Counted from the stretch's first letter, positions 21,605-64,000 are shown. The stretch: 64,000 nt of DNA from an uncultured Alphaproteobacteria bacterium (GCA_944392555.1 CALXWZ010000001.1:1810-65809), one strand, 5' to 3'. Made by a program: numbers and translations. The notes: a model not told the origin generated them from the letters alone.

Positions 21605-21635
21605 AGATATATTAAAAGAAGTCCAAAAGGAAGAT

Positions 21636-22244: not shown

Positions 22245-22245
22245 T

Positions 22246-26383: not shown

Positions 26384-26498
26384 TGACAAGCTACCTAAAA
26401 AGGAGTAAATTATTCCTGTCGTGGATCCTTTTTAGTGACACCTAGTAGTAGGTTTGACTAGAATGATTCTTGAAAGGCTGTTATTGACGTAACGGCCT
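26384..26498 (+). ncRNA. candidate small RNA: sigma70-like promoter (TTGACA-17-TAAATT) followed ~55 nt later by a terminator hairpin with T-run
   Basis: TTGACAagctacctaaaaaggagTAAATT at 26384..26412. Hairpin AGGCTGTT-attgacgt-AACGGCCT followed by TTTTTTATT at 26463..26498. No ORF >9 codons between them. Lies in a 900-bp ORF-free region. Confidence 0.25.
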
Positions 26499-26501
26499 TT
26501 T

Positions 26502-27071: not shown

Positions 27072-27447
27072 CAGTTTTATTCTCCAAAATTTCTTTAATT
27101 GCTTTTTGTTGTTCATCTGTTAATTCGTTAATTTTACGAGCAAAACTGTATGCCAAAGACTGTATTTCGGCATTAGGAACATCAATTTTTATATGTACCT
27201 TATCTTTGTTCTTTAATTCTTCTTCTCGCGTTTTTTCAATTGCATTTTCAAGGGCAGAAATTTGCTCTTTTGAAAGTGGATAATGTTTTACCAACCGATC
27301 TATGAAGTTTACGGGTATGCTTTTCTTGCCTGTTTCAATAGCAGACAAGAAAGAAGAGGAAAGCTCCAGCGTTTTACTCATATCATATAATTTGATACCT
27401 AACATAATCCGAAATGTTTTTAACCATTTTCCAAATTCTGTATTCAT
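27064..27447 (-). CDS. XRE-family helix-turn-helix transcriptional regulator
   Basis: LKTFRIMLGIKLYDMSKTLELSSSFLSAIETGKKSIP is a classic XRE/Cro-C1 HTH. Paired with ImmA. Confidence 0.75.
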   Translation of the reverse strand: MNTEFGKWLKTFRIMLGIKLYDMSKTLELSSSFLSAIETGKKSIPVNFIDRLVKHYPLSKEQISALENAIEKTREEELKNKDKVHIKIDVPNAEIQSLAYSFARKINELTDEQQKAIKEILENKTDD

Positions 27448-27657
27448 TCTGTGTCTCCTTTCGACTACAAAACAGATTCTAGACTAAAATCAAACAAAAG
27501 TCAACCTATTTTGTAAAAAAAATTCACCTATCGGTTAATTTTTTTTGTAACGAATTGATTTTTAATGAAAATATTTATTAAATTTTTCATATTTTAGTTG
27601 ATTTTTATGTTTTTTTGAGCGTTATAGTTATCTGAATTATCTGAAACGGAGGTCAAA

Positions 27658-27840
27658 ATGTCAGAGAAAACGGAAAAGCTTGTTCATATCATCTTACCGG
27701 ATTTGTTAAATTATCTGAAAACGGTGGAAAGTGGGGAGATTATCAAAAAACGTCTTGAAAAAAATAATCTGCTTGCGTATAAGGAAGAAAAAACTAATGA
27801 AATTGATAATGTTAATCAGAAAACAACGAAAAATATATAA
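27658..27840 (+). CDS. small hypothetical protein (60 aa) with strong RBS, immediately upstream of the R-M genes
   Basis: acGGAGGtcaaaATG. No HTH recognisable; charged and helical. Could be a leader or controller element of the restriction operon. Confidence 0.35.
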   Translation: MSEKTEKLVHIILPDLLNYLKTVESGEIIKKRLEKNNLLAYKEEKTNEIDNVNQKTTKNI

Positions 27841-27910
27841 GATTTTTTATAAATCACTTGCAAAACTATTCAATTTTGTGTCTAATACACAAAGTATAGG
27901 AGATATCAAT

Positions 27911-29791: not shown

Positions 29792-30791
29792 GTTATTTGA
29801 CTTACATTATGGTGTTAATTTGGAATTAATAAATTTAAATGTATGCGACAAAAATAACAAAAATTACATCAATTTTGTAAGTAGAATTTCAAAGAATAAT
29901 GGTGTTGCTGCTTTAGTTGAAAAATTAGCCGGTGTTCAGGCAAATCCTGCTGGAAGTATTTCTGTTTCAGCTGGTGGTTCAGTTGCTGAAGCGTTCTTAC
30001 AAAAAGAAGAATACTATTCAGGTAGAGATGTATATTATCTTCAAGAAAAAACACCTATGACAGATCTTCAAAAATTATTTTATTGTATGTGTATTCGTGC
30101 AAATAAATACAAGTATAACTATGGCAGACAAGCGAATAGGACTTTGGGAGACATTCTTGTTCCTGACCTGAGTGAAATACCAGATAACTTTATGCAACTT
30201 CAAATTCCTGATTATTCTTCAATGGATGATAAATCCATAATAGGTGAAATGGATTTTGATGTTAGAAAGTGGAAAACATTTAGATATGATGAAGTTTTCG
30301 ATATAAAAAAAGGGTATTATAATAAAAAACCAGAACACACGATATCTGGTGATATTCCATTCATTGGAGCTATTGACCACAATAATGGGGTATCGGAATT
30401 GTATTCTATAGAAGATATATCGTTGTATCATAAAGACGGATCAACGGATTCTGATGACTTAAATAAAAAGTTATTTGATGGCAATTGTATTACGGTATCG
30501 AACAATGGTTCTGTGGGATATGCATTTTATCAAAAAGACCAGTTTACATGTAGTCATGATGTAAATCCATTATATCTTAAAGAAAATAAAGATAGGTTGA
30601 ATCCTTATATTGCAATGTTTTTAATTTCTTTGATCGAAAAGGAAAGATTCCGTTGGTGTTATGGTCGGAAATGGCGTCCCAAGAGAATGCCTTCCTCGTT
30701 AATAAACTTACCTGTCAATAATGAGGGAAATCCAGATTGGGACTACATGGAAAAATTTATAAAATCAATGCCTTACAGCAAGTCGATTTAG
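29775..30791 (+). CDS. Type IIB R-M specificity subunit (HsdS-like TRD), BcgI-B-like
   Basis: 338 aa. Overlaps the A-subunit gene by 17 nt. HsdS-like features LGDILVPDLSE, FIGAIDHNNGVSE and TVSNNGSVGYAFYQKDQFTCSHDVNPLYLK. Size equals BcgI-B (341 aa). Confidence 0.65.
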   Translation: MKKLNELFDLHYGVNLELINLNVCDKNNKNYINFVSRISKNNGVAALVEKLAGVQANPAGSISVSAGGSVAEAFLQKEEYYSGRDVYYLQEKTPMTDLQKLFYCMCIRANKYKYNYGRQANRTLGDILVPDLSEIPDNFMQLQIPDYSSMDDKSIIGEMDFDVRKWKTFRYDEVFDIKKGYYNKKPEHTISGDIPFIGAIDHNNGVSELYSIEDISLYHKDGSTDSDDLNKKLFDGNCITVSNNGSVGYAFYQKDQFTCSHDVNPLYLKENKDRLNPYIAMFLISLIEKERFRWCYGRKWRPKRMPSSLINLPVNNEGNPDWDYMEKFIKSMPYSKSI

Positions 30792-31233
30792 CTATTTTAT
30801 AGTGTTATTCGGTATTTTACGCCTATTTTATTGATAAAATAGGATATTTTTGTTGTATTTTATTAGTTGATGAACGATTTTACCCCACTAAAAATACCCA
30901 GCTTGTTGCCAACTCAATTTGGCAGCTTGGTCGTTAAATTATTGTAATTCAATGTGTTACATAAATTATTATTCTTCTGGAGTTCGCATCCGGTCTGGTG
31001 ACCTTGAGTAGATTTGAACTAGCGACAACTAGATAAAAATATATGTTTTTCAATGAGTTATAGCTAGCGACCACTTTTTCTCATTTTTTTATGCGAGGTA
31101 TACTTTTTTGCCAAAGGTATACTTTTAGATGCGCAAAAAAGTATCATACAATTGAATATTGCCAACTTGCCATCAAAGAAAATCTATAATTAACCTATTG
31201 AAAAACATAATTAAATTATTTATTGATAAAAAA

Positions 31234-35435: not shown

Positions 35436-36038
35436 TTATTTTTGCTCACTGAATTGAAAGGTTTTACTCTTTTGTTCCAATTCTTTCGTTAAGGCACTTA
35501 AATTACCGTTATTCTTTTGTAAAAATGAACTGTATTCATTCCGATAACTTAACGCCATGCTGACTCCTTCTACAACAATATCAACAATCTTGTAAGTGCC
35601 GTTTTTTTCACGCACACGCCAAATTACTTCTGCCGGGGGATTGTTTTCAATGGTGCTGTCAACATAAAATTGCCCTTTTTGAGCGGGGCGCGTTCCCGTG
35701 AATGTAATTTTTTGACCGTTATACAGATTAAATTTATCAGCCCATGATTTTGTGGCAAAATCCATAAACGCCGTTAAAAATGCGTCTCTTTCGGCTTGTG
35801 TTGCTTTTCGCCAATAGGTGCCGATAACAAATTGCCCTACAAATTTTAAATCAATGGCGGATTGAAATTTCGTGCGAAATAAATCTAATTTCTCTGTCAT
35901 CGGTTTTTGTGTGGATAGCACGTCAACAATCATTTCGTTTGCCAACTTGCTTACAAACGCCGTTGCTTCATCCGGTCCGGCAACGGCTGTTTTTGCAAAC
36001 ATAAATATGCCGAGCAATAAGATTGATAGTTTTTTCAT
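35436..36038 (-). CDS. mlaC: MlaC (Ttg2D) family periplasmic phospholipid-binding protein
   Basis: Signal peptide MKKLSILLLGIFMFAKTAVA. Overall toluene-tolerance/MlaC-like composition. Adjacent to mlaA. Confidence 0.6.
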   Translation of the reverse strand: MKKLSILLLGIFMFAKTAVAGPDEATAFVSKLANEMIVDVLSTQKPMTEKLDLFRTKFQSAIDLKFVGQFVIGTYWRKATQAERDAFLTAFMDFATKSWADKFNLYNGQKITFTGTRPAQKGQFYVDSTIENNPPAEVIWRVREKNGTYKIVDIVVEGVSMALSYRNEYSSFLQKNNGNLSALTKELEQKSKTFQFSEQK

Positions 36039-36049
36039 TATGGTTCTCC

Positions 36050-36829
36050 TTATTCAAAGTCATCAAATTCCATGTCAAATTCATATTGTTTGGGTGTTTC
36101 TTGATCTACATTTCCCAATGCATCGTTAATTACCTTTTGTCGATTTTGTTGACTCATTGTGCGTATGGTTGCATAATAATCGGCCGATGAACGATGTAAA
36201 TTATCCAAAAATTCTATGGCGCGTTCCCGCATTTGCACGTAGTTGACGCCGTTTAGCGGGTAAGATGTCCATGGTGTCAGGCATGTAATTAAGATAGACG
36301 GCGGTGTGATGAAATTACCCATTGTGCCGAAAACATCCCGCGGGTTTGAGGGCCCGAAAAACGGCAATACCAAATATGTATCACTCGTATGCCAACCCCA
36401 AACGGCTAATGTTTGCCCGAAATCGTTATCATATTTCGGGATGCCCATATCGGAAGCAACATCCATCAGTCCGAAAAATCCCCAAAACGTATTAGCCAGA
36501 AATCGCTTCGTTGCATTCGCCGTTTTTGTTCCGTTTGCTTGTAGCGTGCCGTTGACAATGTTGCGCATTTCGCTCATATTGTCGTAAAAATTCGTAACGC
36601 CTGTTCGGATTGTTTGTGTCGTAACGGCGCGATATCCGTATGCGACCGGTTCTAAAATAACGGCGTCAAACATATTATTAAACGCGAAAATACCGCGATT
36701 CATCGGCTCCAACGGGTCATGATTCGCTTCGTATGCTTTTAATTGCTCGGGATCCGTCGGCTTTGTGGCACATGCACCGCATAACAGACAACTTGTTGCA
36801 ATTATTAACGTTAATAATGTGTGTTTCAT
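36050..36829 (-). CDS. mlaA: MlaA/VacJ outer-membrane lipoprotein
   Basis: Lipobox LLCGAC. DPLEPMNRGIFAFNNMFDAVILEPVAYGYR matches the VacJ N-terminal signature (DP.E..NR..F.FN...D). Confidence 0.75.
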   Translation of the reverse strand: MKHTLLTLIIATSCLLCGACATKPTDPEQLKAYEANHDPLEPMNRGIFAFNNMFDAVILEPVAYGYRAVTTQTIRTGVTNFYDNMSEMRNIVNGTLQANGTKTANATKRFLANTFWGFFGLMDVASDMGIPKYDNDFGQTLAVWGWHTSDTYLVLPFFGPSNPRDVFGTMGNFITPPSILITCLTPWTSYPLNGVNYVQMRERAIEFLDNLHRSSADYYATIRTMSQQNRQKVINDALGNVDQETPKQYEFDMEFDDFE

Positions 36830-36837
36830 GGGGTTCC

Positions 36838-37428
36838 TTATAATGTTTTTCCTTTGTTAATTGCCTCCATTTGTTTTGTGATTTCGGGCAATACTTCGTC
36901 AACCGAGCGCACAAAAGTGAGTAATTTTAATTGATACGGCTTCACAAACCCTTCGCCGATCATTTCATATATAAATTGCTCTAACGTGTTATAAAAACCG
37001 TCAATGTTAACAACGATAATCGGGGCTTTGATGATGTTCAGTTGGCGTAATGTTAAAACTTCAAACAGTTCATCCATCGTGCCGAAACCACCGGGCAAAA
37101 TACAGATGGCATCTGATTGGCTGACCATGGAAACTTTTCGCTCGGCCATTAAATCCCATACCTCAAATTTATTCGCCCGTTCCGCCACATTTTCAGGTTT
37201 TTCAATATCGTATAATTCGCGGATGGTTGCGCCGATAACGTAACCGTTCTCGGAAAAAGCCCCGTCGGCAACGGCTCCCATCAGCCCGGTTGTGCCGGCG
37301 CCGTAGATTAATTTGATTTCGTTCTGCGCCAAAATTTCCCCGAGGCGATGTGCTTCTTGCATATATATGGCCTTTCTTCCCGGGCTTCCTCCGCAGAAAA
37401 CTGCAACAGAATTAAGTGTACTCATCAT
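36838..37428 (-). CDS. LOG-family cytokinin riboside 5'-monophosphate phosphoribohydrolase-like protein
   Basis: VAVFCGGSPG...IYGAGTTGLMGAVA...ILPGGFGTMDELFEVLT carries the PGGxGTxxE signature (TIGR00730 type). Confidence 0.8.
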   Translation of the reverse strand: MMSTLNSVAVFCGGSPGRKAIYMQEAHRLGEILAQNEIKLIYGAGTTGLMGAVADGAFSENGYVIGATIRELYDIEKPENVAERANKFEVWDLMAERKVSMVSQSDAICILPGGFGTMDELFEVLTLRQLNIIKAPIIVVNIDGFYNTLEQFIYEMIGEGFVKPYQLKLLTFVRSVDEVLPEITKQMEAINKGKTL

Positions 37429-37532
37429 TTTTTCCTTGCTTTTCCGAATAAATTATTTAATACTGTTTTTAAATGTAGTATATAATACCGTATATTGCAA
37501 AAAGGTCAAGATAAATTTTACAAGGATACAGC

Positions 37533-38678
37533 ATGAAAAAAAGTATTATCGCCTTGATTTTTGTTTTTTTAACACAAAGCACATCGGCGCAGGAAAGCGT
37601 GCCGTTGTTTGAGGATATTCCGGCATACGAATCGTCTTCAAGTGCTTCAACGCAAACGGCATCGCCCGTTTCTTCCGGCGCAGGCAGGCGCATTGACTTA
37701 ACCCCGAAAGCCTCGCAAACTGCCGAAACGGAGCGCATGCCGGCACAAGCCTCAAAAACAAGCGGGACGATACAAAGACCGAAATTAGGCCGAGATGCGG
37801 AACCGTTATCTTCCTTGGTGATTGCGCCGTTCCCGAATACAACGATTGAAATTGATCCCTCGTCTAAAAAAGTAAAAGAAACGTTGGCGGAGGAAAAATA
37901 CACGGAATCGCAAATCAAAGATGAAGATTTGATTAAGCGTAGCACCCCGTTGACGATGACCGAATCCGATAAAGCCGGTGCGCAAAAGGTAATGCAGGAA
38001 AAAGCGCGCGCATTAAGTTTAAATCGGCACGATGCTTCAAAATTTAAATTGGCCGGTATCGGTTTCGGCTGGGATAGCGAAAGCGTATATGATGAATTAA
38101 GCGAACTCGGCTATACGTTACAACGTGTGGAAAAATCCATTCCGCTGTTCAGAACATCTTATTACGAAAATTTATGTCGGCAACAGCACGGGTTGACGAT
38201 TGTTGATGAAATTCGCAGATGTATTTTGGAATACGCCGAATCGGATGAAGTACATTATGTTTTCCGCGAAACGTATGTGCGCCCGCAATCGCGCGAAACG
38301 ATTCAAGTTTCTTATTCTTCGCCCGAAACGATGAATGTTGTTTACAAAATTGTTTACCGCAATTTGGGGGATAATTCGCTTAATACCAGCCGTAAAAGTA
38401 TGGCCAAGAAAATGCGTCGGCAGGAAGATTTTTGGAATATGATTTTTGATACATACGGTTTGCCGGATGAAAATGATAAGTTAATTTGGGGTAATCCCGA
38501 TACCGTGTATATGCAGGTTTTAATGCGCGGTTCGGCGTATGATGCCTATATCATTTTGGAAGATCGCTTAATCCAAGATAAAGATTACGAAGCGGCTCAA
38601 TCGGATTTTGCAACGTTGCGTCGGCCGACGGCGTTTACGATTAACGGTGAACTGCCTCAAACAGATGAAGAAGATTAA
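37533..38678 (+). CDS. secreted hypothetical protein (signal peptide, Ser/Thr/Ala-rich N-terminal third)
   Basis: MKKSIIALIFVFLTQSTSAQE signal peptide; 381 aa; no motif recognised. Confidence 0.45.
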   Translation: MKKSIIALIFVFLTQSTSAQESVPLFEDIPAYESSSSASTQTASPVSSGAGRRIDLTPKASQTAETERMPAQASKTSGTIQRPKLGRDAEPLSSLVIAPFPNTTIEIDPSSKKVKETLAEEKYTESQIKDEDLIKRSTPLTMTESDKAGAQKVMQEKARALSLNRHDASKFKLAGIGFGWDSESVYDELSELGYTLQRVEKSIPLFRTSYYENLCRQQHGLTIVDEIRRCILEYAESDEVHYVFRETYVRPQSRETIQVSYSSPETMNVVYKIVYRNLGDNSLNTSRKSMAKKMRRQEDFWNMIFDTYGLPDENDKLIWGNPDTVYMQVLMRGSAYDAYIILEDRLIQDKDYEAAQSDFATLRRPTAFTINGELPQTDEED

Positions 38679-38695
38679 CGGGAGATCGGGGGTTT

Positions 38696-40639
38696 GTGAT
38701 GATGGATGATTTCAACATCAATCGATATTTAATCAATTACACGCAACTTTCCAAGGCGCGTCGGTTGACGAATTTGGTTGGCAGACAAGAAGAATTGGAA
38801 AGACTGATTCACATTTTAATGCGTAGCACGAAATGTAATCCGGCGGTTATCGGGGCAAGCGGAATCGGTAAGACGGCGTTGATTGAAGGGTTGATTAACT
38901 TTTTGGCATCGGACGGCGTACCCGATTCATTAAACGGCAGAGAAGTTGTGGGTATTGACATTCCGAAAGTGATGCTTGATACAAAGTCGGAAGCCGAATA
39001 CAGTGAGTTGCTTAAACAAATTATACAAACGGTTGTGGATAGCGATAAACAGAAAATTTTATATTTAAAAGATGTCAGCCTATTAGTAAATATGGATACG
39101 AATCCCGAAAATAAAGAGGCGGCAAAATTTTTAAAATTATGTCTTTCAACCGATTCGGTTATGTGTATTTTGGAAGCAAATACCATCACTTATGTTTCTT
39201 CCGTTGAAAAAGATAATACGGTTATGGCGCATATTCAACCTGTTATGATTGATGAGCCGAGTTTAGATGAAAGTATTGCCATTACGCGGGCGCGTAAAAG
39301 ATTTTATGAATTGCATTATGATGTTTCCATTCCGGAAGAAAGTGTGCGCACGGCGTGTCAATTATCACATAGATATGTGAAACAGCGCTCGTTTCCGTCC
39401 AAAGCTTTGGATTTATTAGACGATGCATGCAGTTTACTGAAAATGGATTATGAAAAAGGTGTGCCGGAAGCGGGCAATTTGGTTTTAACGAGTGATTATT
39501 GCTATCGCACGGTTGCAGATTGGACGGGTATTCCCGTTGAAAAAGTAGATGCCGAAGATAAACAGCGGTTAGCAAATGCCGAAGTGTATTTGAAACGACG
39601 GGTTATCGGACAAGATAGTGCCGTAACGGTTGTGGCCAATGCCTTGCGTCGGGCGCGTTCCGGGTTGCAAGATCCAAATCGTCCGATTGGGTCATTCCTG
39701 TTTATCGGAACGACGGGTGTCGGTAAAACGGAGTTGGCTAAATCGTTGGCGGAATTTATGTTTAACGATGAAACTGCCTTGCTCAGATTGGATATGTCGG
39801 AATATATGGAGCGCACATCGGTTGCGCGTATGATCGGGCCGGCTCCCGGCACTCCCGGATTTGAGGCCGGCGGGTTATTGACGGAAGCTGTTCGTTTAAA
39901 GCCGTTTCAGGTTGTGCTGTTTGATGAAATTGAAAAAGCGCACTTGGATATTTTGAATTTAATGTTGCAGTTGCTTGATGAAGGGCGTTTAACGGATAGC
40001 AAAGGCGTAACGGTTGATTTCAGAAACACGATTATCATTTTAACATCAAACGTGGGTGCCAACTTGCCGAGTTATCAACGTGTTGAAAAATTAGGTGAGT
40101 ATTTCCGGCCGGAATTTTTAAACCGGTTGGACGATATTGTTTCATTCCACCAGTTAGGCGAAGAAGATTTGCGCAAAATTGTGGATATCCACTTGAACAA
40201 ACTTTTAAAACGAGCGCAACAAGTCGGCTATACGATAACGATTGCCGATTCGGCAAAGGATTGGTTTGTGGACGAAGTGTTTACCTCTAAATTCGGTGTG
40301 CGCGCATTGAAGCGATTGATTCAAAATCAGGTAGAAAACCCATTATCGTTCTTAATTATGCAAGAAAAAGTGAAACCGGGGCATGAAGTCTTTTTAAATG
40401 TGGATAAATCGGGCAGAAAGTTGCAGATTTATGCACGCAGTGCGTTGGCGGGGTTGAAGTCGGAAGAGGGGCAAAAAGAAAAACCGCTGGATGTGCCGAC
40501 GGAAGTGCATCAACCCGAAACGGATGAAGCAAAAAAAACAGAGACATCCGAAAATTCGGCAAAACCGGCAACAAAATTAAAAGCCCCCGACGTAGCGCAG
40601 ACAGCCAAGCGGGCCCCGCGCCAGCCGGTTAAAAAATAA
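38696..40639 (+). CDS. Clp/Hsp100-family AAA+ ATPase with degenerate first nucleotide-binding domain, no N-domain and no long middle domain; basic Lys/Pro-rich C-terminal tail
   Basis: NBD1: Walker A VIGASGIGKTALIEGL is present, but the Walker B position reads ILYLKDVSLL (no D-E). NBD2 is intact: FLFIGTTGVGKTELAKSLA, VVLFDEIEKAH, sensor/arginine regions and SRx(E/D)xGARxL-like GVRALKRLIQ. Confidence 0.75.
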   Translation: MMMDDFNINRYLINYTQLSKARRLTNLVGRQEELERLIHILMRSTKCNPAVIGASGIGKTALIEGLINFLASDGVPDSLNGREVVGIDIPKVMLDTKSEAEYSELLKQIIQTVVDSDKQKILYLKDVSLLVNMDTNPENKEAAKFLKLCLSTDSVMCILEANTITYVSSVEKDNTVMAHIQPVMIDEPSLDESIAITRARKRFYELHYDVSIPEESVRTACQLSHRYVKQRSFPSKALDLLDDACSLLKMDYEKGVPEAGNLVLTSDYCYRTVADWTGIPVEKVDAEDKQRLANAEVYLKRRVIGQDSAVTVVANALRRARSGLQDPNRPIGSFLFIGTTGVGKTELAKSLAEFMFNDETALLRLDMSEYMERTSVARMIGPAPGTPGFEAGGLLTEAVRLKPFQVVLFDEIEKAHLDILNLMLQLLDEGRLTDSKGVTVDFRNTIIILTSNVGANLPSYQRVEKLGEYFRPEFLNRLDDIVSFHQLGEEDLRKIVDIHLNKLLKRAQQVGYTITIADSAKDWFVDEVFTSKFGVRALKRLIQNQVENPLSFLIMQEKVKPGHEVFLNVDKSGRKLQIYARSALAGLKSEEGQKEKPLDVPTEVHQPETDEAKKTETSENSAKPATKLKAPDVAQTAKRAPRQPVKK

Positions 40640-40650
40640 GAGATCGGTTT

Positions 40651-41700
40651 ATGACGCACGAGTTTTCGCAAAGCGAAGCGACCGAGAAGTTATTGCAGTG
40701 GTTTTCAAAAAACGGGCGCGATATGCCGTGGCGTGTGAAAGGGCGGGCGCATGGAAATCCGTATGCCGTATGGATATCCGAAATTATGTTGCAACAGACA
40801 ACGGTTAAAACGGTTGTTGATTATTTTAATCGGTGGATGGAACGATTCCCGACGATTGAGTCTTTGGCTGAGGCGGATTTACAGAAAGTTCTTCTTTATT
40901 GGCAAGGGTTGGGATACTATACACGTGCGAAAAAAATTTATGAATGCGCACACGTCTTAATGAAAGAATATAACGGAAAAATCCCGAACAATCGTGACTT
41001 ATTACTTAAACTGCCCGGCATAGGGCCATACAGTGCGTCCAGTATCTGCGCTTTTGCATTCAATCAGCCCGAAACGGTGGTAGATGGTAATGTTATTCGG
41101 GTGATTGCCAGATTGTATGGCTTGACACATGAAGTGACTAAGGAAGAAATTTACCGCCTCTCTCAACCGTTGACACCGAAAGAACACGGTGCGGATTATG
41201 CCTCTGCCATTATGGATTTGGGGGCAACCGTTTGCACGCCGAATAAACCGAATTGTTTGCAATGTCCATGGCGGGAAATTTGCAAGGCTCACGCGTTGAA
41301 CATTGCCGAATCCATTCCGCTCATTCATAAGCCGGCAAAAAAAATAAAAAGGGGATATGTGTATCTTATTCAAAACGATGCCGGCGCTTTTTATATTGAA
41401 AAGCGGGCAGGGAAGGGGTTGCTTTCGGGGTTGTTTGAGTTTCCGTGGCAGGAAGATGAAGCCCATTATCCGCTTTTTGAACACCCGCGCTGGCGCCAAA
41501 CATCGCAAACCGTATCGCATACGTTTACGCATTTTCAGTTGACGCTTCAAATTGTGCGGTTGCAAGTTTCGGAAAATGAAGCTATCCCGCTTTCAAACGG
41601 GATATTCGTTTTGCCGGAACATTTTTCGGATTATCCTTTTTCTACATTGATGAAAAAGGTAATGAAACGGTTGGTTGAAAAAGAACCGCGCTTTTTGTAA
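40651..41700 (+). CDS. mutY: A/G-specific adenine DNA glycosylase MutY
   Basis: HhH-GPD region (LPGIGPYSASSICAFAF, VDGNVIRVIAR), 4Fe-4S loop C-x6-C-x2-C-x5-C (CTPNKPNCLQCPWREIC) and C-terminal Nudix-like domain. Confidence 0.85.
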   Translation: MTHEFSQSEATEKLLQWFSKNGRDMPWRVKGRAHGNPYAVWISEIMLQQTTVKTVVDYFNRWMERFPTIESLAEADLQKVLLYWQGLGYYTRAKKIYECAHVLMKEYNGKIPNNRDLLLKLPGIGPYSASSICAFAFNQPETVVDGNVIRVIARLYGLTHEVTKEEIYRLSQPLTPKEHGADYASAIMDLGATVCTPNKPNCLQCPWREICKAHALNIAESIPLIHKPAKKIKRGYVYLIQNDAGAFYIEKRAGKGLLSGLFEFPWQEDEAHYPLFEHPRWRQTSQTVSHTFTHFQLTLQIVRLQVSENEAIPLSNGIFVLPEHFSDYPFSTLMKKVMKRLVEKEPRFL

Positions 41701-54070: not shown

Positions 54071-54534
54071 TGTTCAGCAGGGGAAAAAGACATTTGTTTT
54101 GAGATGACAATATGTCCGATCAGAAAAAGGCGGTGTATCTGAATAAGGTATACCGCCTTTTATTATGGCGATAAAAAATAAAGATGTAAGAGTTAGGGAA
54201 ATATGAATGAATGGATTGAGAAATACACGCTGTAAGATTTGCGGATAAGTCTATTAGAACAAAAAAAGTTGTGCGGTTTTAGTTATCAGGCACAACACGA
54301 AGCTAAAAAACAAACGCTGTTTTGGGCTATATAGGCTGCCTATACAAAAAGGTCCGTCTAGATGATATAGTATAAACAGGATTATAAAGGTATTTTTAAA
54401 ATAATCAAGTAAAAATTTAAATTCAAATATCTGATTGTAAAATAATAATTTTTTAAGATTTCTTTTTGTGGGGTGATTTCGTGCTTTATTCCCTCTACAT
54501 AAACGGACGTTTATGTAGAATAGGGAGAAAGAAA

Positions 54535-56685
54535 ATGAATATAAAACAAATAGTTAAATTGGCTTCTTTTTATGCAAAAAAAGTAAAAAACGGGGAATTT
54601 ACGCTGAATCGCACAAAACAAGGGATAAAATCAGCGAATCAAAATAGCTTTACGCGCTTGAAAAACAATCAAAAAGCGGAATGTTCAGCAGAATCACAAA
54701 CGCAACATGGATTGGATGAATTGAGCGGGTTGCGTAAGTTGTCTGAATTGAGCGGATTAAACGGTGTGCGCGGATTAAGAAGCGCGCGCTTTGCCGAATA
54801 TGGGCGAAGTATGGTAGAAATGCTGGGCGTATTGGCAGTGATTGGTGTTTTATCGATTGCGGGAATGATGGGCTATCGATATGCGATGACGATGTATCGG
54901 GCGAATGAAACGGTGCATGAAATTAATTTGCGGGCGTATGCAATTGCCCCGATTGCGGATAATAATACAACCGATCCCGAGAATCCCGAAATCGTCATGG
55001 AAATGGGCAACATAACGAATCTGGGGTATCCGATAACAGCATATTGGTTAGAAGACCCAAAATATTTTGAAATAGAAGTGCAGAATGTGCCGGTAGATGA
55101 ATGCAAGATGATTTTGCGGACGGAATGGACGTTGCCGATTATTATGAAAGTGGGCGATTTAGCCTACGACGGAAATACGAGTATCTGCGATGGATTGACG
55201 GAAGCAGGGGAGCCGACAACAACAGCCGTGATGATCTTCCAATACGGGGCGCACTTGGAAGACGATATGTTGCCATATCAAGAATGCCATAATGATGACG
55301 ATTGTGCGAGCAAATGTGCAAGATGTTCGGCAGAAGGTGTGTGCGTTTCAATCTGCGGGAGTAATGAACGGTGCAGGCAAGATATTTTAACGGGGAGTCA
55401 AGTCTGTTGCACGAGCGATAGATGGGCAGGGCCTTATTGTTGCCCGTCCACAATGAACGGCTATTGTTGCAATGTGGCAGGCGACCAATGTTGCCCATGG
55501 TTTAAACCGCTGATTGATAAGAATGGCAACTGCTATACTTGCGAGGAAGAAAACGGGGTTGACGTTACGGGTGTCAATGAAAACTGCAACGCTTGTCCAG
55601 GTAGAGAGATATGGAATAATAAATGCGTGCTTCCTTGTGGAGAAAATGAAATCAGAGATTATAATGGAAAATGCCATAGTTGTGATGAAGAAGATCCTAT
55701 CTATCTACGAGATTCAGCACGAACGGAGTGTAGTAGTTTGTGCCCCGGTCGTGTTTCTAATGGATGGCTGGATTTTTATTGTTCAATTCCATGCGGTGAG
55801 GGAACTTTTACGGGCGGTGACGGAAAATGTTATGATTGTAATACGGAAAAAAATGTGGAATTGGAAGGTGTTTCCCATGATGGTTGTGAGCAATGTGAAA
55901 ATAGAGAATTGATAGGAGAGTTTTGTGTATTAAATTGTCCGACAGGACAATTTCGTGGGGATGACGAAAAGTGTTATGACTGTAATGTAGATGATCCTAT
56001 TTATATTAAAAATGCAGCAGAAACATGTACAAGGAGTTGTGCTAACCGTGTCGCAAATGGTTGGTTAAACAGATATTGTTCTATCCCTTGTCCGGCAGGA
56101 ACATTTACAAGTTATTATGGCACATGTCACTCGTGTGGTGAAGAAAAAAATATTAGTATTGATGGTGTGAAACACACAGGCTGTGAACAATGTTCAGAAC
56201 GCCATCAAATCAGTGGGTTGTGTATATTGGACTGCCCAAAGGGACAAATACGAGGAGATGATGGAATTTGTTATAGTTGTAGTGAACCTAATCCAATTTA
56301 TATAAAAGATGGAAAAACTGTGTGTGAAACTACATGTCCAAATCGGATTGGAAGCGGTTGGGTTAATAGATATTGTGCTTTACCATGCCTGAAAGGAACA
56401 TTTACAAGTTATTATGGAACGTGTCATTCTTGTGATGATCCCGAAAATATATTTATTTCCGGTGTTTCACATAATGGTTGCGAAGAGTGTCCTAATACGC
56501 GTAATATGTATAATGAGTATTGTGTTCCGAAATGTCCGGCAGATGCACCGTTAAGAGGCAGAGATAATAAATGTTATCCTTGTGATACCGAAGAACGTGT
56601 ATATGTTCTCAGAATGAGTGATGCCTGTATGGAATGTTATGAAGAGCGCATACTGGATGGAGACTCTTGTGTCTTAAAAGAATAA
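54535..56685 (+). CDS. large membrane-anchored cysteine-rich tandem-repeat protein (N-terminal ~95-aa cytoplasmic region, one TM, then ~7 Cys-rich ~50-aa modules)
   Basis: TM MVEMLGVLAVIGVLSIAGMMGY. Ectodomain units alternate between C[HY]xCxxxxPIYIKxxxxxCxxxCxNRxxNGWxNRYCSIPCxxGTFT and xxGxC[HY]SCxxxxNxxIxGVxHxGCEQCxxRxxIxxxCxLxCPxGQxRGDDxx. RGDD occurs in two units. Confidence 0.6.
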   Translation: MNIKQIVKLASFYAKKVKNGEFTLNRTKQGIKSANQNSFTRLKNNQKAECSAESQTQHGLDELSGLRKLSELSGLNGVRGLRSARFAEYGRSMVEMLGVLAVIGVLSIAGMMGYRYAMTMYRANETVHEINLRAYAIAPIADNNTTDPENPEIVMEMGNITNLGYPITAYWLEDPKYFEIEVQNVPVDECKMILRTEWTLPIIMKVGDLAYDGNTSICDGLTEAGEPTTTAVMIFQYGAHLEDDMLPYQECHNDDDCASKCARCSAEGVCVSICGSNERCRQDILTGSQVCCTSDRWAGPYCCPSTMNGYCCNVAGDQCCPWFKPLIDKNGNCYTCEEENGVDVTGVNENCNACPGREIWNNKCVLPCGENEIRDYNGKCHSCDEEDPIYLRDSARTECSSLCPGRVSNGWLDFYCSIPCGEGTFTGGDGKCYDCNTEKNVELEGVSHDGCEQCENRELIGEFCVLNCPTGQFRGDDEKCYDCNVDDPIYIKNAAETCTRSCANRVANGWLNRYCSIPCPAGTFTSYYGTCHSCGEEKNISIDGVKHTGCEQCSERHQISGLCILDCPKGQIRGDDGICYSCSEPNPIYIKDGKTVCETTCPNRIGSGWVNRYCALPCLKGTFTSYYGTCHSCDDPENIFISGVSHNGCEECPNTRNMYNEYCVPKCPADAPLRGRDNKCYPCDTEERVYVLRMSDACMECYEERILDGDSCVLKE

Positions 56686-58438: not shown

Positions 58439-58902
58439 TTGATACTTCCTTTTTGATAGAGAACAGATTGTTCTTGATATTGAAAAGATTTTGTTTGAGG
58501 GGAGAAAGATTCGAAAGCAAAATAAAAATGCCTAAAAGATTTTATGCAGGATACTAAATTTATTCTCTTTTTTTGCATTGTTTTCGAATCGTTAAAAGTT
58601 TTTCCCATTATACAAGAATGAATTTTTTTTGCAACCCAAAAAACGAAGTTTTCCGAATAAAAATGATGCAAATCGGTGTGAGCAAAAAGTTCTCTGCCTG
58701 CTAATAGAATGAAAAAATAAAGTGTTTTGATGAAAGTAAATACTGTGCGTTTTTTGTTTTTCAATAAAAAACGAATCTCTGTTCGGCTTATTCGGTAAAA
58801 GAGCAAAAATAATGCAAAAAAAATGAATAAAAAAGTATCATATTAACGAAATTTTCATACTTTTTCGCGAGAATGAAACAAGTGTTTGTGAAAGGTGAAT
58901 GA

Positions 58903-60792
58903 GTGAGCCAAACCAGAAAATTTTTACGGCAGACGGCACTTATCGGCATCGGTATCGGACTGATGGCCGGTATCGGCTATTTTGCACCGGCTTTAATGCA
59001 ACACTCCTCGCTTGAAAATGATAGAGAACGCTTTATTGCAGAAGTGGTTAAAGAGCACTTCCCAAATACGGATATCGGCGCTTTGCCGGCGTATGATGCT
59101 TATTTATCGCGCGCGTTGGAACGTGTGATCGGATTATATGTCGGGCAGGAGAACGTGCGCGCCGTTGTGCGAGCGGATTTAGCCGTGCGCCGTGAAGAAA
59201 CGGTGCAACATAGGATTATTAAGGATTCCGCCGTTGTCAAAGAGGAGCGGACGGAGCAAAAGGAAGATGGCTCTACCGTTAAAAATACCGTTTTTGATTA
59301 TACAACCGAAACAACACGCACCAATGCCGTTTTTTATGATGTGCAAAAAGTAAATGCACTGGTTTTTGTGGCGCACGAGGCGCAAAAAAACGGTTTGCCG
59401 TTGCAAGAAAATGCGTATTTGAAAAAAATGACGGCAACCGCTATCGGTTTGGACGAAACGCGTGGCGATACGTTGCAACTGGTTGCGTTCCCGAGGTCGG
59501 AAAGTCAAAATAAATTATTCGGTGCGTATGATTTGCAAATCCGTCAAATGGTAGCGGTGGCGCTGATTTGTATGGCTTGCGTATTTTTTGTTGCCGTTTT
59601 GCTTATTCCTTGGTTGTTGGTAAGGTTCGGACGGATTCATCCGTTGCCCGAGCCGGTGTTGCGTCAGGAGCCGAAAGATATGTATCGGTATCAAATTATC
59701 GGCAATATTGAAGATAATTTAATGATGAAAACGCAGACTCTGTGCCTTGAAATGCCGGAAGCGGCCGTGAATGTTTTAAGAAATTGGCTTGCCGAAGAAA
59801 GTAAAGGCGTGCGACGGGGCGATTTGTTTTCGCCTGCGCAAAAAGCGGCCATTGTTTTGCTGTGTATCGGCGAAAGAGGGATTAAAACGGTGTTTCGGTG
59901 TATGACCGATGCCGAGATTTTTTCGCTTTCGCGCTTGATGGCATCGTTAGGGCAGGTAAAGGCGATTGATATTCAACCGATATTGTTGGCATTTTGTCAG
60001 TCAATGACAATGCCACAAGATATTCGCGAAACGAAACCGCTGGTGGAATCTTTAATTCGGAATGCTTTGCCGGCAGATAAGGCAACGGCTTTGTTAAGTG
60101 AGATGAAAATCGTTGCAAAAGGCAAAAGCGTTTGGGAAAAATTAAGTACTGTGCCAAGTGAGAAGTTGAGTTGTTTCTTGGCTTCCGAATATCCGCAAAC
60201 GGCCGCCGTGATTTTATACCACTTATCAACGGAAAAAGGTGCGGAAGTGCTCACGCAAATGGATGAACGGGCAGGTGCGCGCATTTTAATCAGGTTGAGC
60301 GCCTTGCAGTATTTGAATCCGAATAACGTGCGGATGATTGAACATGAGTTGGAAAAACAAATTGAGTCTTTGTTGTCCGCCCCGGTGGGTGTGGGTGAAG
60401 AAAAAGCATCGGCTATTTTAAGTTTGCTGGATTCGGAAACGCAAAGCAAATATATGTCATCCATGGAAAAGGTATCACCGCAAACGGCCGGCTTATTGGC
60501 AAAGCGCGTTTTTTGCTTTGATGATTTGGCATCGTGGAGCGGTGATGATTTGCGCACGTTGTTAAAACATATTGATTCCAAAACATTGATAACGGCGTTA
60601 ATTAATGCCAAAGATGAAACGAAGGAGGCTTTCTCACGCGTTGTCAATCCGCAAAAATGGAGCGCCATGTTAAAGAAAATTAATCAGTTGCCGATGGGCA
60701 AAATTCAAGATATAGATATATCTCAACGCGCCATTATCCAAATTGCTCGGCAGTTGGTGGAAAGTAAAAAGTGCAAAGGAAGCAGTTTATGA
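58903..60792 (+). CDS. fused flagellar M-ring (FliF C-terminal RBM3 + TM2) :: rotor protein FliG (full length)
   Basis: GTG start with AAAGGTG RBS. N-terminal signal-anchor TM. Residues ~75-200 match the FliF ring-building motif 3 region: GQENVRAVVRADLAVRREETV..., ...RGDTLQLVAFPRS before TM2 (cf. FliF GNVHAQVTAQLDF... and RGDSVSVVxLPF). TM2 is VAVALICMACVFFVAVLLIPWLLV. Residues ~290-629 align along the whole of FliG: LSPAQKAAIVLLCIGERGIKTVFRCMTDAEIFSLSRLMASLGQV (FliG-N), EYPQTAAVILYHLSTEKGAEVLTQMDERAGARILIRLSAL (middle, EHPQT motif), VFCFDDLASWSGDDLRTLLKHIDSKTLITALINAKDETKEAF...IQDIDISQRAIIQIARQLVESK (C-terminal torque helix region). Confidence 0.7.
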   Translation: MSQTRKFLRQTALIGIGIGLMAGIGYFAPALMQHSSLENDRERFIAEVVKEHFPNTDIGALPAYDAYLSRALERVIGLYVGQENVRAVVRADLAVRREETVQHRIIKDSAVVKEERTEQKEDGSTVKNTVFDYTTETTRTNAVFYDVQKVNALVFVAHEAQKNGLPLQENAYLKKMTATAIGLDETRGDTLQLVAFPRSESQNKLFGAYDLQIRQMVAVALICMACVFFVAVLLIPWLLVRFGRIHPLPEPVLRQEPKDMYRYQIIGNIEDNLMMKTQTLCLEMPEAAVNVLRNWLAEESKGVRRGDLFSPAQKAAIVLLCIGERGIKTVFRCMTDAEIFSLSRLMASLGQVKAIDIQPILLAFCQSMTMPQDIRETKPLVESLIRNALPADKATALLSEMKIVAKGKSVWEKLSTVPSEKLSCFLASEYPQTAAVILYHLSTEKGAEVLTQMDERAGARILIRLSALQYLNPNNVRMIEHELEKQIESLLSAPVGVGEEKASAILSLLDSETQSKYMSSMEKVSPQTAGLLAKRVFCFDDLASWSGDDLRTLLKHIDSKTLITALINAKDETKEAFSRVVNPQKWSAMLKKINQLPMGKIQDIDISQRAIIQIARQLVESKKCKGSSL

Positions 60793-61754
60793 AGTTGAAA
60801 ACGTTTTTTGCCGATAGTATTCCCGAAGCGATGAGTGAAATTCGCCGTGTTTTCGGCGAAAAGGCTGTTATTGTTTCTTCTTTTCGCACGAAAGGGAAAG
60901 GCGTAAAATTGGTTGTTGCCACAGAAGAGGCGGAACAATCCGGCAGTTTGATTCGGGATGAATATCATAAAAACGAGCAACGGCGACGCTATTTTAAAAA
61001 AATCCTCGCGTCCAGACAGGTATCCGATGAGATGATTGAACGCTTGGTGAATGCGTTGGCACGCAAGGGCAGTAAAATATCCGAAGAAAAATTTTTATCG
61101 CGCGCCATTGCGGAGTTATATTCTTTTAAATCATTGGAACCGATTAAACGAAGCGGATTATTTGCTTTTGTCGGGGCGTCGGGATGCGGTAAAACAACGG
61201 CTGTGGCAAAACTGGCATTCCATGCCAAAACGCAGAAAATTCAAACGGCGTTGATTACTTTGGATACGCAAAAAGTCGGCGGTGCGGACGAATTGATGCG
61301 CTATGCACACATTATGGAAATGCCGTGCACCGTATTGGATGATTGGCATAAGTTAAATGAAACCATAACGGTGTTACGCTTGAATTACGGGTTGATTTTA
61401 ATTGATACACCCGCGTTAAATCCCTATAATACGGAAGATGCGGGGCGGTTGAACGTTATTAAAACACAAGTGGCAGATGCGGATATGATATATGTGCAAC
61501 AAGCCGGTATGGATTGCCATGAAGCGCAAACACAAGGAGCAGTGTTTTCAAAAGGCGGGTGTCTCAGATTGTTGGTGACGAAAACGGATGCTTCTGCCAG
61601 TTATGGCGGTTTCTTGCAAAGTGCGGCATTCAGTGCATTTCAGTTCGCAGGTTTTTCCAAATCGGGAAAAATAACGGATTATTTAACGGAAGCAACACCC
61701 GATAATTTGGCGCAATTATTAAAACACGGCAGTGGTGAGGGAGAAGAAGAATGA
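60789..61754 (+). CDS. flhF: flagellar biosynthesis SRP-type GTPase FlhF-like
   Basis: ATG overlaps the upstream stop (ATGA). MKLKTFFADSIPEAMSEIRRVFGEKAVIV matches the FlhF N-terminal B-domain (MKIKRFFAKDMREAL...LGPDAVI). P-loop GASGCGKTTAVAKLA; G3-position ILIDTPA (G missing from DTAG); G4 LLVTKTDAS. Confidence 0.7.
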   Translation: MKLKTFFADSIPEAMSEIRRVFGEKAVIVSSFRTKGKGVKLVVATEEAEQSGSLIRDEYHKNEQRRRYFKKILASRQVSDEMIERLVNALARKGSKISEEKFLSRAIAELYSFKSLEPIKRSGLFAFVGASGCGKTTAVAKLAFHAKTQKIQTALITLDTQKVGGADELMRYAHIMEMPCTVLDDWHKLNETITVLRLNYGLILIDTPALNPYNTEDAGRLNVIKTQVADADMIYVQQAGMDCHEAQTQGAVFSKGGCLRLLVTKTDASASYGGFLQSAAFSAFQFAGFSKSGKITDYLTEATPDNLAQLLKHGSGEGEEE

Positions 61755-62539
61755 GCGAAGCAGTCAGTGATATGCAAAAAGTTTATCGGCGGTTAGACGG
61801 TAAAAACGTGATTGCCGTTACGTCGGGAAAGGGCGGTGTCGGGAAAACGTGGCTTTCCGTAACGTTGGCTCAGGCATTTGCGCAAAAAGGCGAACGCGTA
61901 TTGTTGTTTGATGGCGATTTGGGCTTGGCCAATGCCGATATACAACTCGGCATTAACGCAACGGCGGATTTAGAGCAGGTATTAAGCGGTAAGTTGCCGA
62001 TGAATCAGGCTATTTATCGGGATAATGAATTGGAATTTGAGGTGTTGGCGGGGCACCTCGGAACGCAATCGTTATGTGGTCTTGAAAAAGGACAGTTGCA
62101 ACTTTTATGCGATGATTTATATATTTTGGCACAAAATTACGATCGGGTTGTATTGGATTTAGGTTCCGGAATTGAAAAGTCAATGACGTTTTTAGCCGGT
62201 TGCAGTGGCACGGTTTTGATTATTTGCAATGATGAGCCGACATCATTGGCAGATGCGTATGCCTTGATTAAAATTATTTCATCGGCGGATAATGCCCCGC
62301 GCATTAAAATCGTTGTGAATCAGGCGAACACCGTTAAAGAGGGCGAAAGAACTTTTCAAACGTTGGTTAAAGCGTGTCAAAACTTTTTAAATGTGGATTT
62401 ATTTTTGGGCGGGATTATTCATCAAGATTCGCATGTAAAAGAATGTTTAAAAATGCAAATACCGCTTTTAACGGCATTCCCCGGTTCGGTTGTGGCGGAA
62501 GACGTGCGCAAATTGGCTGACGGATTGATGCGCGAATAG
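61751..62539 (+). CDS. flhG: MinD/ParA-type ATPase FlhG (FleN/YlxH)-like
   Basis: Deviant Walker A VTSGKGGVGKTWLSVTLA, LLFDGDLGLANADIQLG, switch regions. Start overlaps the flhF stop. Confidence 0.75.
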   Translation: MSEAVSDMQKVYRRLDGKNVIAVTSGKGGVGKTWLSVTLAQAFAQKGERVLLFDGDLGLANADIQLGINATADLEQVLSGKLPMNQAIYRDNELEFEVLAGHLGTQSLCGLEKGQLQLLCDDLYILAQNYDRVVLDLGSGIEKSMTFLAGCSGTVLIICNDEPTSLADAYALIKIISSADNAPRIKIVVNQANTVKEGERTFQTLVKACQNFLNVDLFLGGIIHQDSHVKECLKMQIPLLTAFPGSVVAEDVRKLADGLMRE

Positions 62540-62752
62540 ATTGAGTGTTTTTGATTCAACCCGATATGAGTCGAGGAAAGTGTCGGTATACGATATTGTA
62601 TTGTCGGCGTAAAAAAGTTCTTTAACGGTGTGTTGTTCGCGGGTATAGATGATACTACATAAGATAATATATAAAAATCCGTTTCTTTTCCTTGACTTTT
62701 AGGTGGAAATGAATTATCTGATAGAGATAATTTATAACTTGAAAGGAATATA

Positions 62753-64000
62753 ATGTTATTTACAAATTTCTTTGGCTCCGCAAATGACAGATATTTGCGC
62801 AAATTTAAAAAAACAATCAATAAAATTAATGAACTTGAAGCGATATACGAGCAGTTAAGCGATGAGCAGTTAAGGGATAAAACGCAGGAATATAAAACGC
62901 GTATTCAAAACGGTGAATCTTTGGAGAGTATTTTGCCGGAAGCGTTTGCGAGTGTGCGAGAAGGGGCTAAAAGAACGTTGGGATTGCGCCCGTTTGATGT
63001 GCAGTTGCTGGGCGGTATTATATTAAATAACGGACAGATTGCCGAAATGCGCACGGGTGAAGGTAAAACATTGGTGGCAACATTGCCCGTTTACTTAAAT
63101 GCGTTGACGGGGAAAGGCGTGCATGTGGTTACGGTGAATGATTATCTTGCCAAGCGTGATAGTGAATGGATGGGGCAAATTTATCGGTTTTTGGGCTTGT
63201 CGGTCGGGTGTATCGTGCATGATTTAACAACGGAACAACGCCGTGCCGCCTACAATGCCGATATTACGTATGCCACAAATAACGAACTCGGGTTTGATTA
63301 TTTGCGGGATAATATGCGCTTTGAATTAAAAGATATGGTTCAACGCCCGTTTTATTATGCGATTGTTGACGAAGTAGACTCCATTTTAATTGACGAAGCG
63401 CGAACGCCGTTAATTATTTCGGGTCCGGCGGAGGATTCGTCGGAGCGATATATTGCGGTGGATAAGCTGATGCGCAACATTCGCCCCGAGCATTATGAAA
63501 AAGACGAAAAGCACCGCTCGGCAACATTGACGGAAGCCGGCACGGAATATGTGGAGCAACTGTTGCAAGAGCAGGGTTTAATTCAAGGCAGTTTGTATGA
63601 TACGCAAAACATTGCATTTGTGCATCATGTGGACCAAGCGTTGAAAGCTCATGTATTATTCACGCGAGATAAAGATTATATTGTGAAAGACGGGCAAGTA
63701 GTTATTATTGATGAATTTACGGGGCGGATGATGCAGGGTCGTCGCTATTCGGACGGGTTGCATCAGGCGATTGAGGCTAAAGAGGGTGTTAAAATTCAGG
63801 CAGAGAACCAAACGCTTGCATCCATTACATTCCAAAATTACTTCCGTATGTATCCGAAATTAGCGGGTATGACGGGAACGGCTATGACGGAAGCCGGCGA
63901 GTTTGACAGCATTTATCATTTAGACGTGATTGAAATCCCGACAAATCGCCCCTCACAACGCAAAGATGAAAACGATGTGATTTACAGAACGGCGGAAGAA
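62753..64000 (+). CDS. secA: preprotein translocase ATPase SecA (N-terminal ~416 codons; continues past window end)
   Basis: [20 protein letters not shown]..., [94 protein letters not shown]. Not in the ORF track because no stop lies within the window. Confidence 0.9.

Follow-up and report, generated by a model that had tools for sequence, protein, structure and literature searches.

Why should a bacterium keep part of one flagellar rotor protein joined to the whole of another, with hardly any other flagellar gene beside them? The question is raised by a stretch of 64,000 nucleotides (hereafter the window) from an uncultured gut alphaproteobacterium, in which one plus-strand gene (58903-60792; 629 amino acids, GTG start, zero internal stops) encodes a shortened FliF followed by FliG, with homologues of flhF and flhG immediately downstream. 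An earlier note on this DNA had described the gene as a FliF reduced to ring-building motif 3 (RBM3) and the second transmembrane segment (TM2), fused to a three-domain FliG, and had offered three interpretations: a relic, a scattered flagellar regulon, or a repurposed polar-landmark or rotor-like module. Here we show that the architecture stands, that the gene is genuine and strongly constrained, and that the locus looks like a late product of the stepwise reduction of an ordinary polar-flagellum cluster.

A shortened FliF joined to a complete FliG

Pfam, alignment to Salmonella FliF (6scn) and Foldseek comparison of an AlphaFold2 (AF2) model agree on the domain content of the protein. Four Pfam domains exceed their gathering cut-offs: YscJ_FliF_C at residues 125-197 (PF08345, 36.8 bits versus a cut-off of 23.8), which makes the N-terminal region FliF-related; FliG_N at residues 310-402 (59830-60108; PF14842, 73.9 bits); FliG_M at residues 420-491 (60160-60375; PF14841); and FliG_C at residues 520-621 (60460-60765; PF01706), the last with a remodelled torque helix. 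The Pfam scan gave no match in the fusion protein to PF01514, the family of RBM1 and RBM2, even at E≤0.1. Only ~30 residues separate the first transmembrane segment (TM1) from the first RBM3 helix, a gap too short for either RBM1 or RBM2 to fit. As for the equivalog models, the window protein has no match to the NCBIfam FliF equivalog TIGR00206 and scores 144.2 bits with the FliG equivalog TIGR00207, below its cut-off of 226.7.

The topology predicted from hydropathy is that of FliF, with two hydrophobic segments around a periplasmic part and both ends cytoplasmic. TM1 spans residues 12-32 (58936-58998; helix 2-27 in the AF2 model) and has R5, K6 and R9 on its cytoplasmic N-terminal side, and TM2 spans residues ~214-241 (59542-59625) by both hydropathy and AF2, followed by a low-confidence linker (243-259). 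Between them, residues ~60-200 (59080-59502) correspond to RBM3 with a β-collar shorter than that of Salmonella, an assignment made from PF08345, the 6scn alignment and Foldseek. Three independent lines converge on this periplasmic part: residues 124-242 align with Salmonella FliF residues 357-478, residues 64-300 align with residues 233-542 of Magnetospira FliF, and the AF2 model superposes on the RBM3/collar S-ring chains 7d84, 6sd1, 7cg7 and 8zdt over ~144 of ~150 residues (E~1e-8). SpoIIIAG (5wc3) matches the model more weakly (E=1.4e-3). The FliG part, in turn, matches the FliG structures of Salmonella and Aquifex at E~1e-12.

The junction itself is informative. Residues 260-300 (59680-59802; ending ...MPEAAVNVLRNWL) match the extreme C-termini of canonical FliFs, as well as the FliF tail in the engineered Vibrio construct 8z4d, and are predicted to form the FliG-binding helices; FliG_N begins ~10 residues after the motif MPEAAVNVLRNWL. 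Because the FliF C-terminal helices run straight into FliG_N, we read the gene, on the strength of its sequence, as an end-to-start fliF-fliG fusion whose FliF part lacks the residues equivalent to roughly 50-230.

The fusion is maintained by purifying selection

Could the continuous frame conceal a missed stop codon or a frameshift where fliF meets fliG, or belong to a functionless pseudogene? In the least reduced relatives (grade A, described below) the two genes are adjacent and overlapping, so that one assembly error could merge them. The unbroken frame, however, recurs in many independent assemblies, down to ~20% sequence identity. A word-index search recovered 11 full-length orthologues at 50-96% identity and one distant fused homologue, and a separate metagenome-assembled genome (MAG) holds a copy 98% identical to the window fusion (L002). 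When a profile of the N-terminal 300 residues was searched exhaustively, the family grew to ~25 fused clusters of 570-640 amino acids from independent Alphaproteobacteria MAGs; in the same search, canonical FliFs matched only at RBM3b/TM2 and at the C-terminus, and a third group consisted of unfused, RBM3-only FliFs of 281-321 amino acids. The named family members all come from animal-gut Alphaproteobacteria MAGs and are all annotated as "hypothetical protein," a label that leaves the family invisible in motility surveys of genomes.

The rates of nonsynonymous versus synonymous substitution (dN/dS, Nei-Gojobori) speak in the same direction. Whole-gene values for three close pairs are 0.05, 0.13 and 0.10; they lie at 0.03-0.06 on the FliF C-terminal helices (recorded at 0.03) and on each FliG domain, and at 0.07-0.26 in the periplasmic region. 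The window and L002 differ by zero nonsynonymous changes over residues 260-495, which include the fusion junction. A promoter box upstream of the gene is conserved as well, a further point against a pseudogene. We regard artefact and pseudogene alike as effectively refuted and give them almost no credence; by every sign in the alignments, the fusion is a genuine natural gene under strong purifying selection.

Stepwise reduction at one syntenic site

Where did such a gene come from? The related loci occupy one syntenic site, usually between the gene for an RluD-type pseudouridine synthase and secA, and their gene content sorts into four grades. The reference is the flagellated Magnetospira sp. 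QH-2 (L022), with the order fliK-flgD-flgE-fliF-fliG-[288 aa]-fliN-motA-[σ54 activator]-flhA-flhF-flhG and a FliF of 542 amino acids that matches both PF01514 and PF08345. Grade A (L010, L011, L019) has an RBM3-only fliF (285-317 amino acids), fliG, fliN, motA, flhF and flhG, and is thus colinear with Magnetospira minus four elements: RBM1/2 of FliF, the 288-aa gene at the fliH position, the activator and flhA. Grade B (L009, L015) has the fusion, fliN, flhF and flhG; grade C (the window, L001, L003, L004, L007, L012, L013) has the fusion, flhF and flhG; and grade D (L005, L006, L016) has the fusion alone. A broad alignment of minimal FliFs proved too divergent for a metagenome scan, and a narrower one added two extra grade-A loci. 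Two high-GC canonical flagellar loci (L020, L021) were set aside as irrelevant to the series.

The proteins diverge along the same series. Identity to Magnetospira FliG is 53% in grade A, 31% in grade B, 27% in grade C (window) and 27% in grade D; the corresponding values for grades A, B and C are 64%, 42% and 48% for FlhG and 42%, 30% and 30% for FlhF, neither of which applies to grade D. Grade-A FliG passes TIGR00207 (245.6 bits) and grade-A FliN its own equivalog cut-off, and the grade-A minimal FliF reaches 39.7 with TIGR00206, against a cut-off of 129.75, along with a weak match to TIGR02830. Grade-A MotA is of the PomA/MotA type (E=1.5e-56 versus 3.5e-5 for TolQ), its closest named relatives being the flagellar MotAs of Rhodospirillales; it is conserved at ≥50% identity across ~22 clusters and keeps P173, P222, T209 and Y217. 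No motA is present at any fused locus examined, although in the search with grade-A MotA a distant copy in fusion-bearing genomes would be masked by many ~40% matches, and motB was seen at none of the loci.

Magnetospira FlhA, the 288-aa protein and the activator have no tblastn match in 358 kb of clade loci. Because their genes are missing at the exact ancestral positions, deletion rather than relocation is indicated. We therefore suggest that the window module derives from an ordinary alphaproteobacterial polar-flagellum cluster of early genes that was reduced in situ, and that it stands at a late stage of this process. The parts for type III export and late-gene control would have been lost first, then motA, fliN and the placement genes, with the fused ring protein retained last. 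The word "relic" thus fits the history of the gene, through in situ deletion from a flagellar cluster, and not its function, given the strong purifying selection.

The comparison bears directly on the proposal of a scattered regulon, under which the fusion would be the real MS-ring and rotor of a working flagellum whose other genes lie elsewhere, with RBM1/2 either unnecessary or provided by another, SctJ-like protein. Flagellar genes, motA and motB among them, are often unlinked in Alphaproteobacteria, and placing the flagellum is normally the sole role of flhF and flhG. The three FliG domains, the FliF C-terminal helices and the EYPQ...R motif of FliG_M are also strongly conserved, and Salmonella carrying FliF-FliG fusions is motile (PMC10941966). 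Against this stand the deletions at ancestral positions within an otherwise colinear cluster, the loss in every member of RBM1/2, which surround the export gate, and the stepwise disappearance from the locus of motA and then fliN, down to lineages that retain the fusion only. The rod-enclosing β-collar is short, and in some relatives almost gone, which fits the absence of a rod to enclose. After the fusion, moreover, FliG falls from the grade-A level of identity to Magnetospira to that of the window and fails its equivalog model, and apart from those named, flagellar genes appear neither in the 64 kb of the window, where 14 of ~55 frames were scanned, nor among the related loci (~358 kb).

Two observations concern the surroundings of the series. 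A small transmembrane protein of 94-127 amino acids, with an N-terminal transmembrane segment, a conserved CGxxxC β-rich tail and no Pfam family, is encoded just upstream of the fusion at eight related fused loci, L006 and L008 among them (coordinates L001:9463-9819, the uncalled L005:5511-5798, L007:9582-9965, L009:905-1189, L012:9621-9917, L013:7082-7402 and L016:9622-9915). We rejected it as a fifth component, as it is absent from the window, from L002-L004 and L015 and from all grade-A loci; it may assist the fused ring or simply adjoin rluD. At L012, a block MlaC-MlaA-LOG-(381 aa)-ClpB-like AAA-MutY (L012:2581-8599) lies directly upstream of rluD and the fusion. The MlaC…MutY block of the window (35436-41700) lies ~17 kb from the fusion, and pyrG, not rluD, is adjacent to the fusion, which points to a local rearrangement or insertion in the window lineage.

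The operon with flhF and flhG

The flhF homologue (60789-61754, plus strand; 321 amino acids) starts at an ATG that overlaps the stop codon of the fusion (ATGA), and the flhG homologue (61751-62539, plus strand; 262 amino acids, MinD/ParA-type) likewise shares an ATGA with flhF. With these 4-bp overlaps, flhF and flhG are predicted to be translationally coupled to the fusion, which would head the operon. As had been remarked before, these two are its only flagellar neighbours, with pyrG upstream and secA downstream. The gene pyrG is on the minus strand, and the survey of window open reading frames, in which 14 of ~55 were scanned with hidden Markov models, saw no other flagellar gene in the 64 kb. 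The 5' part of secA (62753-64000, plus strand) is a frame open to the window end and serves as a synteny anchor outside the module; secA also comes after flhG in L007, L011, L012, L013 and L019. Large proteins without family match, of 695 and 982 amino acids, lie between flhG and secA in two relatives (L011:14871-16958 and L007:14029-16977, respectively), and the corresponding interval of the window (62540-62750) holds no equivalent of them.

The FlhF homologue consists of a FliG-interaction domain (FID), a short linker and an NG domain. It matches PF00448 and scores 132.5 with TIGR03499, below the cut-off of 174.15. Residues 2-47 match the crystallised FID chain 9en1_A from end to end (E=0.0024, with a 55-aa query), this segment is invariant across grades, and the NG domain is closest to those of solved FlhFs (PDB 8r9r, 2px0). 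The G1 (GASGCGKTT) and G4 (TKTD) motifs are present; G2 reads DTQK and G3 DTPA in the window, the clade having DTxK and DTP[A/S] instead of DTxR and DTAG, and grade-A FlhF keeps the G2 arginine and the G3 glycine. FlhG is the most conserved of the three operon proteins. Its deviant Walker A (SGKGGVGKT) and DGDLGLAN motifs are intact and invariant across the alignment, and its C-terminus is short (...VRKLADGLMRE); it matches CbiA, AAA_31 and ParA in Pfam and does not reach the MinD equivalog cut-offs.

Upstream of the operon, a conserved CtrA-box-like element, TTAACGAAATTTTCA (TTAAC-N6-TT[C/T/A]A; 58843-58857, plus strand), emerges as a footprint over the related loci. It is followed ~11 nt 3' by a -10-like hexamer, GAGAAT (58869-58874, plus strand), and direct reading of the sequence places a Shine-Dalgarno AAGGTGA (58892-58898, plus strand) 4 nt 5' of the GTG start. 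In 13/13 loci of grades A-D the box lies between -77 and -60 relative to the start codon, with a chance of 0.003-0.02 per upstream region, and it is a perfect TTAA-N7-TTAA in L012. In the upstream alignment, a T-rich stretch and then an nAnAAT hexamer follow 3' of the box, with A70 and T72 invariant. CtrA-like motifs are not enriched elsewhere in the window, so that the evidence for the box is the cross-lineage footprint alone; a generic promoter and terminator scan of the operon did not rise above shuffled background. Promoters that CtrA activates carry the box close to −35 and start transcription 23-24 nt beyond its edge, and the fliF promoters of R. sphaeroides depend on CtrA (PMC6180460). 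The box-to-hexamer layout in the window fits this spacing, and we infer a CtrA-type site.

Remodelling of the FliG torque surface

The torque-helix region that had been assigned to the C-terminus of the protein is present as a helix, without the canonical charged residues that face MotA. At the positions of E. coli FliG (L014; the source of this numbering) K264, R281, D288, D289 and R297, the window protein has I567, Q584, K591, K592 and K600. Grade A, in which motA is present, has K at 264, R or N at 281, E at 288, D at 289 and R at 297; grade B has K at 264, R or A at 281, E at 289 and R or K at 297, with position 288 recorded as K in the residue table and as K or R when the D288/D289 pair was tallied. 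The pair thus passes from E/D in grade A through K or R/E in grade B to K/K in the window. All fused proteins share a P-x-x-W signature in the torque helix (P583-x-x-W586 in the window), and the dN/dS values place this helix under strong constraint. In our reading, the torque surface has been remodelled, not abandoned.

The reversed charges add to the case against a working flagellum with a scattered regulon, which would require a co-evolved stator matching them. Zhou, Lloyd and Blair reportedly found in 1998 that a charge reversal in FliG and one in MotA can offset each other. Together with the deletions at ancestral positions and the loss of RBM1/2, however, the changes lead us to disfavour this explanation, which we judge unlikely.

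A different reading keeps the rotor and changes its drive: the ring would be turned through P-x-x-W and the positive FliG_C by a non-canonical 5:2 motor of the MotA/ExbB/TolQ type, and would power or gate an output other than a filament; in grade A, MotA would spin a rotor without axle. This would account for a conserved PomA/MotA-type gene beside an RBM3-only FliF in grade A, where flhA is absent, and for a torque helix that in the fused proteins is remodelled yet strongly conserved rather than degraded. We nevertheless think it improbable, even more so than the scattered regulon, as a stator-like gene is found at no fused locus and not in the window, motB is at none of the loci, no candidate output structure is encoded nearby, and the mapping of R90 and E98 in grade-A MotA is ambiguous at 23% identity.

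The FliM-binding EHPQR motif follows a less regular course. It is kept in the window clade as EYPQ (429-432) plus R464, in agreement with the EYPQT pointed out before, and the change of H to Y is also found in grade A. In several other fused lineages, both grade-D ones included, the motif is degenerate. Its retention correlates only partially with the presence of FlhF, two FlhF-positive lineages also being degenerate.

A proposed ring without flagellar drive

What, then, is being maintained? Of the three interpretations in the earlier note, the repurposed polar-landmark or rotor-like module is the best supported. We suggest, with moderate confidence, that the truncated FliF::FliG together with FlhF and FlhG makes up an inner-membrane ring that is placed by the latter two, lacks flagellar drive and is selectively maintained. 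Its ancestor would be a fliF-fliG-fliH?-fliN-motA-flbD-flhA-flhF-flhG cluster, reduced in place. RBM3 alone assembles rings of native symmetry (PMC8786727), and engineered FliF-FliG fusions assemble MS rings efficiently (PMC10941966); RBM3 of the fusion would likewise self-assemble, into an inner-membrane ring of ~33-34 subunits, each carrying one covalently tethered FliG on the cytoplasmic face. The FID of FlhF is known to bind FliG-MC, and FlhF-bound FliG still binds the FliF C-terminus while excluding FliM and FliN (PMC11236974). In the present system, the FID would bind the M/C part of FliG, and FlhF would seed the ring or fix its position, which is probably polar; FlhG would limit the number or timing of rings, and a CtrA-type cell-cycle regulator would probably set expression. 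Engaging neither an export gate nor canonical MotAB, such a ring would be no flagellar motor. It may instead provide a platform or a landmark in the membrane, and its remodelled FliG_C (P-x-x-W, K591/K592) would bind a new partner. It could, for instance, take part in an FlhG-dependent control of division at the pole, a role suggested by C. jejuni, where FlhG, FlhF and the MS-ring and switch proteins inhibit polar division (PMC3228812).

Several observations weigh against this model of a driveless, FlhF/FlhG-placed ring. The survey of flagellar genes covered the window and the related loci, and a second fliF/fliG, flhA, fliPQR, motAB or fliM may lie elsewhere. The AF2 model of the fusion has moderate confidence (pLDDT 70, pTM 0.28). 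The GTPase cycle of FlhF, and with it the control by FlhG, may not work classically, because the arginine of G2 and the glycine of G3 are gone. With EYPQ...R retained in the window clade, a FliM-like partner could still exist. Finally, grade-D loci keep the fusion without flhF and flhG, which implies that the core function is independent of the FlhF and FlhG of the locus and that a division role of the Campylobacter kind cannot be general.

A bolder version of the same model extends it to the whole clade, and we put it forward only tentatively, as doubtful in its full form. A periplasmic S-ring-like collar with a cytoplasmic FliG ring, independent of any flagellum, would be placed by FlhF and FlhG, timed by a CtrA-type regulator and addressed to a new FliG_C partner, and would act as a hitherto unrecognised polar landmark or division-site regulator throughout a clade of host-associated Alphaproteobacteria. 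In grade A, the ring might be spun by MotA, and may then amount to a rotary motor without export gate, rod or filament.

If the remaining flagellum is truly absent, RBM3 of FliF, FliG, FlhF and FlhG, the starters of polar assembly, would have a selectable function of their own. They would offer a natural minimal system for the nucleation and positioning of the MS ring, with a built-in 1:1 ratio of FliF to FliG and no symmetry mismatch from RBM1/2, and the loci would be a stepwise, single-site record of the dismantling of a flagellar motor, showing which part outlasts the others. FlhF/FlhG and a rotor ring would then have a role independent of the flagellum, possibly in polarity or division, in abundant uncultured gut Alphaproteobacteria. 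What makes the family interesting is how cleanly the reduction series runs, how strongly the gene is constrained, and that exactly those proteins that initiate assembly are retained.

Other features of the window

Putative surface proteins are encoded both here and near the module in its relatives. In the window, a 739-aa protein without Pfam match (54466-56685, plus strand) has many cysteine-rich, CxxC-type repeats, preceded by an internal class III signal like that of type IV pilins (…GRSMVEMLGVLAVIGVLSIAG…) ~110 residues past the listed start; in make-up it resembles a giant pilin-like adhesin or a minor pilin. In two related loci, Chlam_PMP-like autotransporters and YadA-stalk/collar proteins lie near the module (L007:1-980, L008:1-982), consistent with a surface-attached, host-associated lifestyle of the clade.

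Farther from the module, a prophage or remnant (2570-9040, minus strand) encodes a tail tube protein (PF18906), an S49 head-maturation-type protease and a lambda-family portal (PF05136), and a DNA methylase (PF01555; 13447-14400) lies beyond the phage block. An island at 18000-31000 has 29-34% GC, versus ~42% elsewhere, and was probably acquired horizontally. It holds PHP-domain proteins, a phosphoketolase (XFP; 22246-24264) and the M and S genes of a type I restriction-modification system (27731-30791).

Comparison with known systems

It is well known that non-motile bacteria can retain some flagellar genes; for RF32 and gut Alphaproteobacteria, we found no literature on flagella. The closest counterpart is the canonical polar-flagellum set of FliF, FliG, FlhF and FlhG in Magnetospira QH-2, Shewanella and Vibrio, with which the present locus shares gene order and orthology, as well as the FliF topology, the RBM3/collar fold, the connection of the FliF C-terminus to FliG_N and the FID of FlhF. 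It differs in that FliF has no RBM1/RBM2 and forms one polypeptide with FliG, in that flhA, the fliH-position gene, the σ54 activator, fliN and motA are gone from the locus, and in the reversed torque-helix charges of FliG and the changed G2 and G3 residues of FlhF. The spontaneous or engineered FliF-FliG fusions of Salmonella and Vibrio (8z4d/8z4g for the latter) have the same end-to-start junction, with residues 569-932 of 8z4d aligning with residues 273-621 of the window protein. Those, however, are laboratory constructs with full-length FliF in flagellated cells, whereas the present fusion is natural, lacks RBM1/2 and stands in a reduced gene set.

Two further systems resemble single aspects of the module. 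The SpoIIIAG ring shares the fold of an RBM with a β-insertion and an N-terminal transmembrane anchor, but it matches far more weakly than RBM3 of FliF, has neither a second transmembrane segment nor FliG, and belongs to another system and phylum. In Campylobacter jejuni, the set FlhG, FlhF, FliF and FliG is used beyond motility (Balaban and Hendrixson 2011); there, the flagella are complete and FliM and FliN are also required.

The nearest natural parallel, which the earlier note had overlooked along with the multi-step reduction series, is the reduced FliF-FliG fusion of Chlamydiaceae (CT719-type, ~330 amino acids), described as having an RBM2-like domain plus one RBM, no SpoIIIAG-like RBM3 and only a FliG-M-like domain (Bergeron 2016; PMC4768692). 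Both proteins combine a shortened FliF with FliG-derived sequence, and Chlamydiaceae, too, keep only a few flagellar genes. The published description nonetheless sets the two apart: here, RBM3 is the sole periplasmic domain and is followed by the FliF C-terminus and the full FliG N, M and C domains, and the companions are flhF and flhG, as opposed to fliI and flhA plus an injectisome in Chlamydiaceae. A natural reduced fusion is therefore already known in itself, and the present protein is the converse truncation of the chlamydial type, with a complete FliG.

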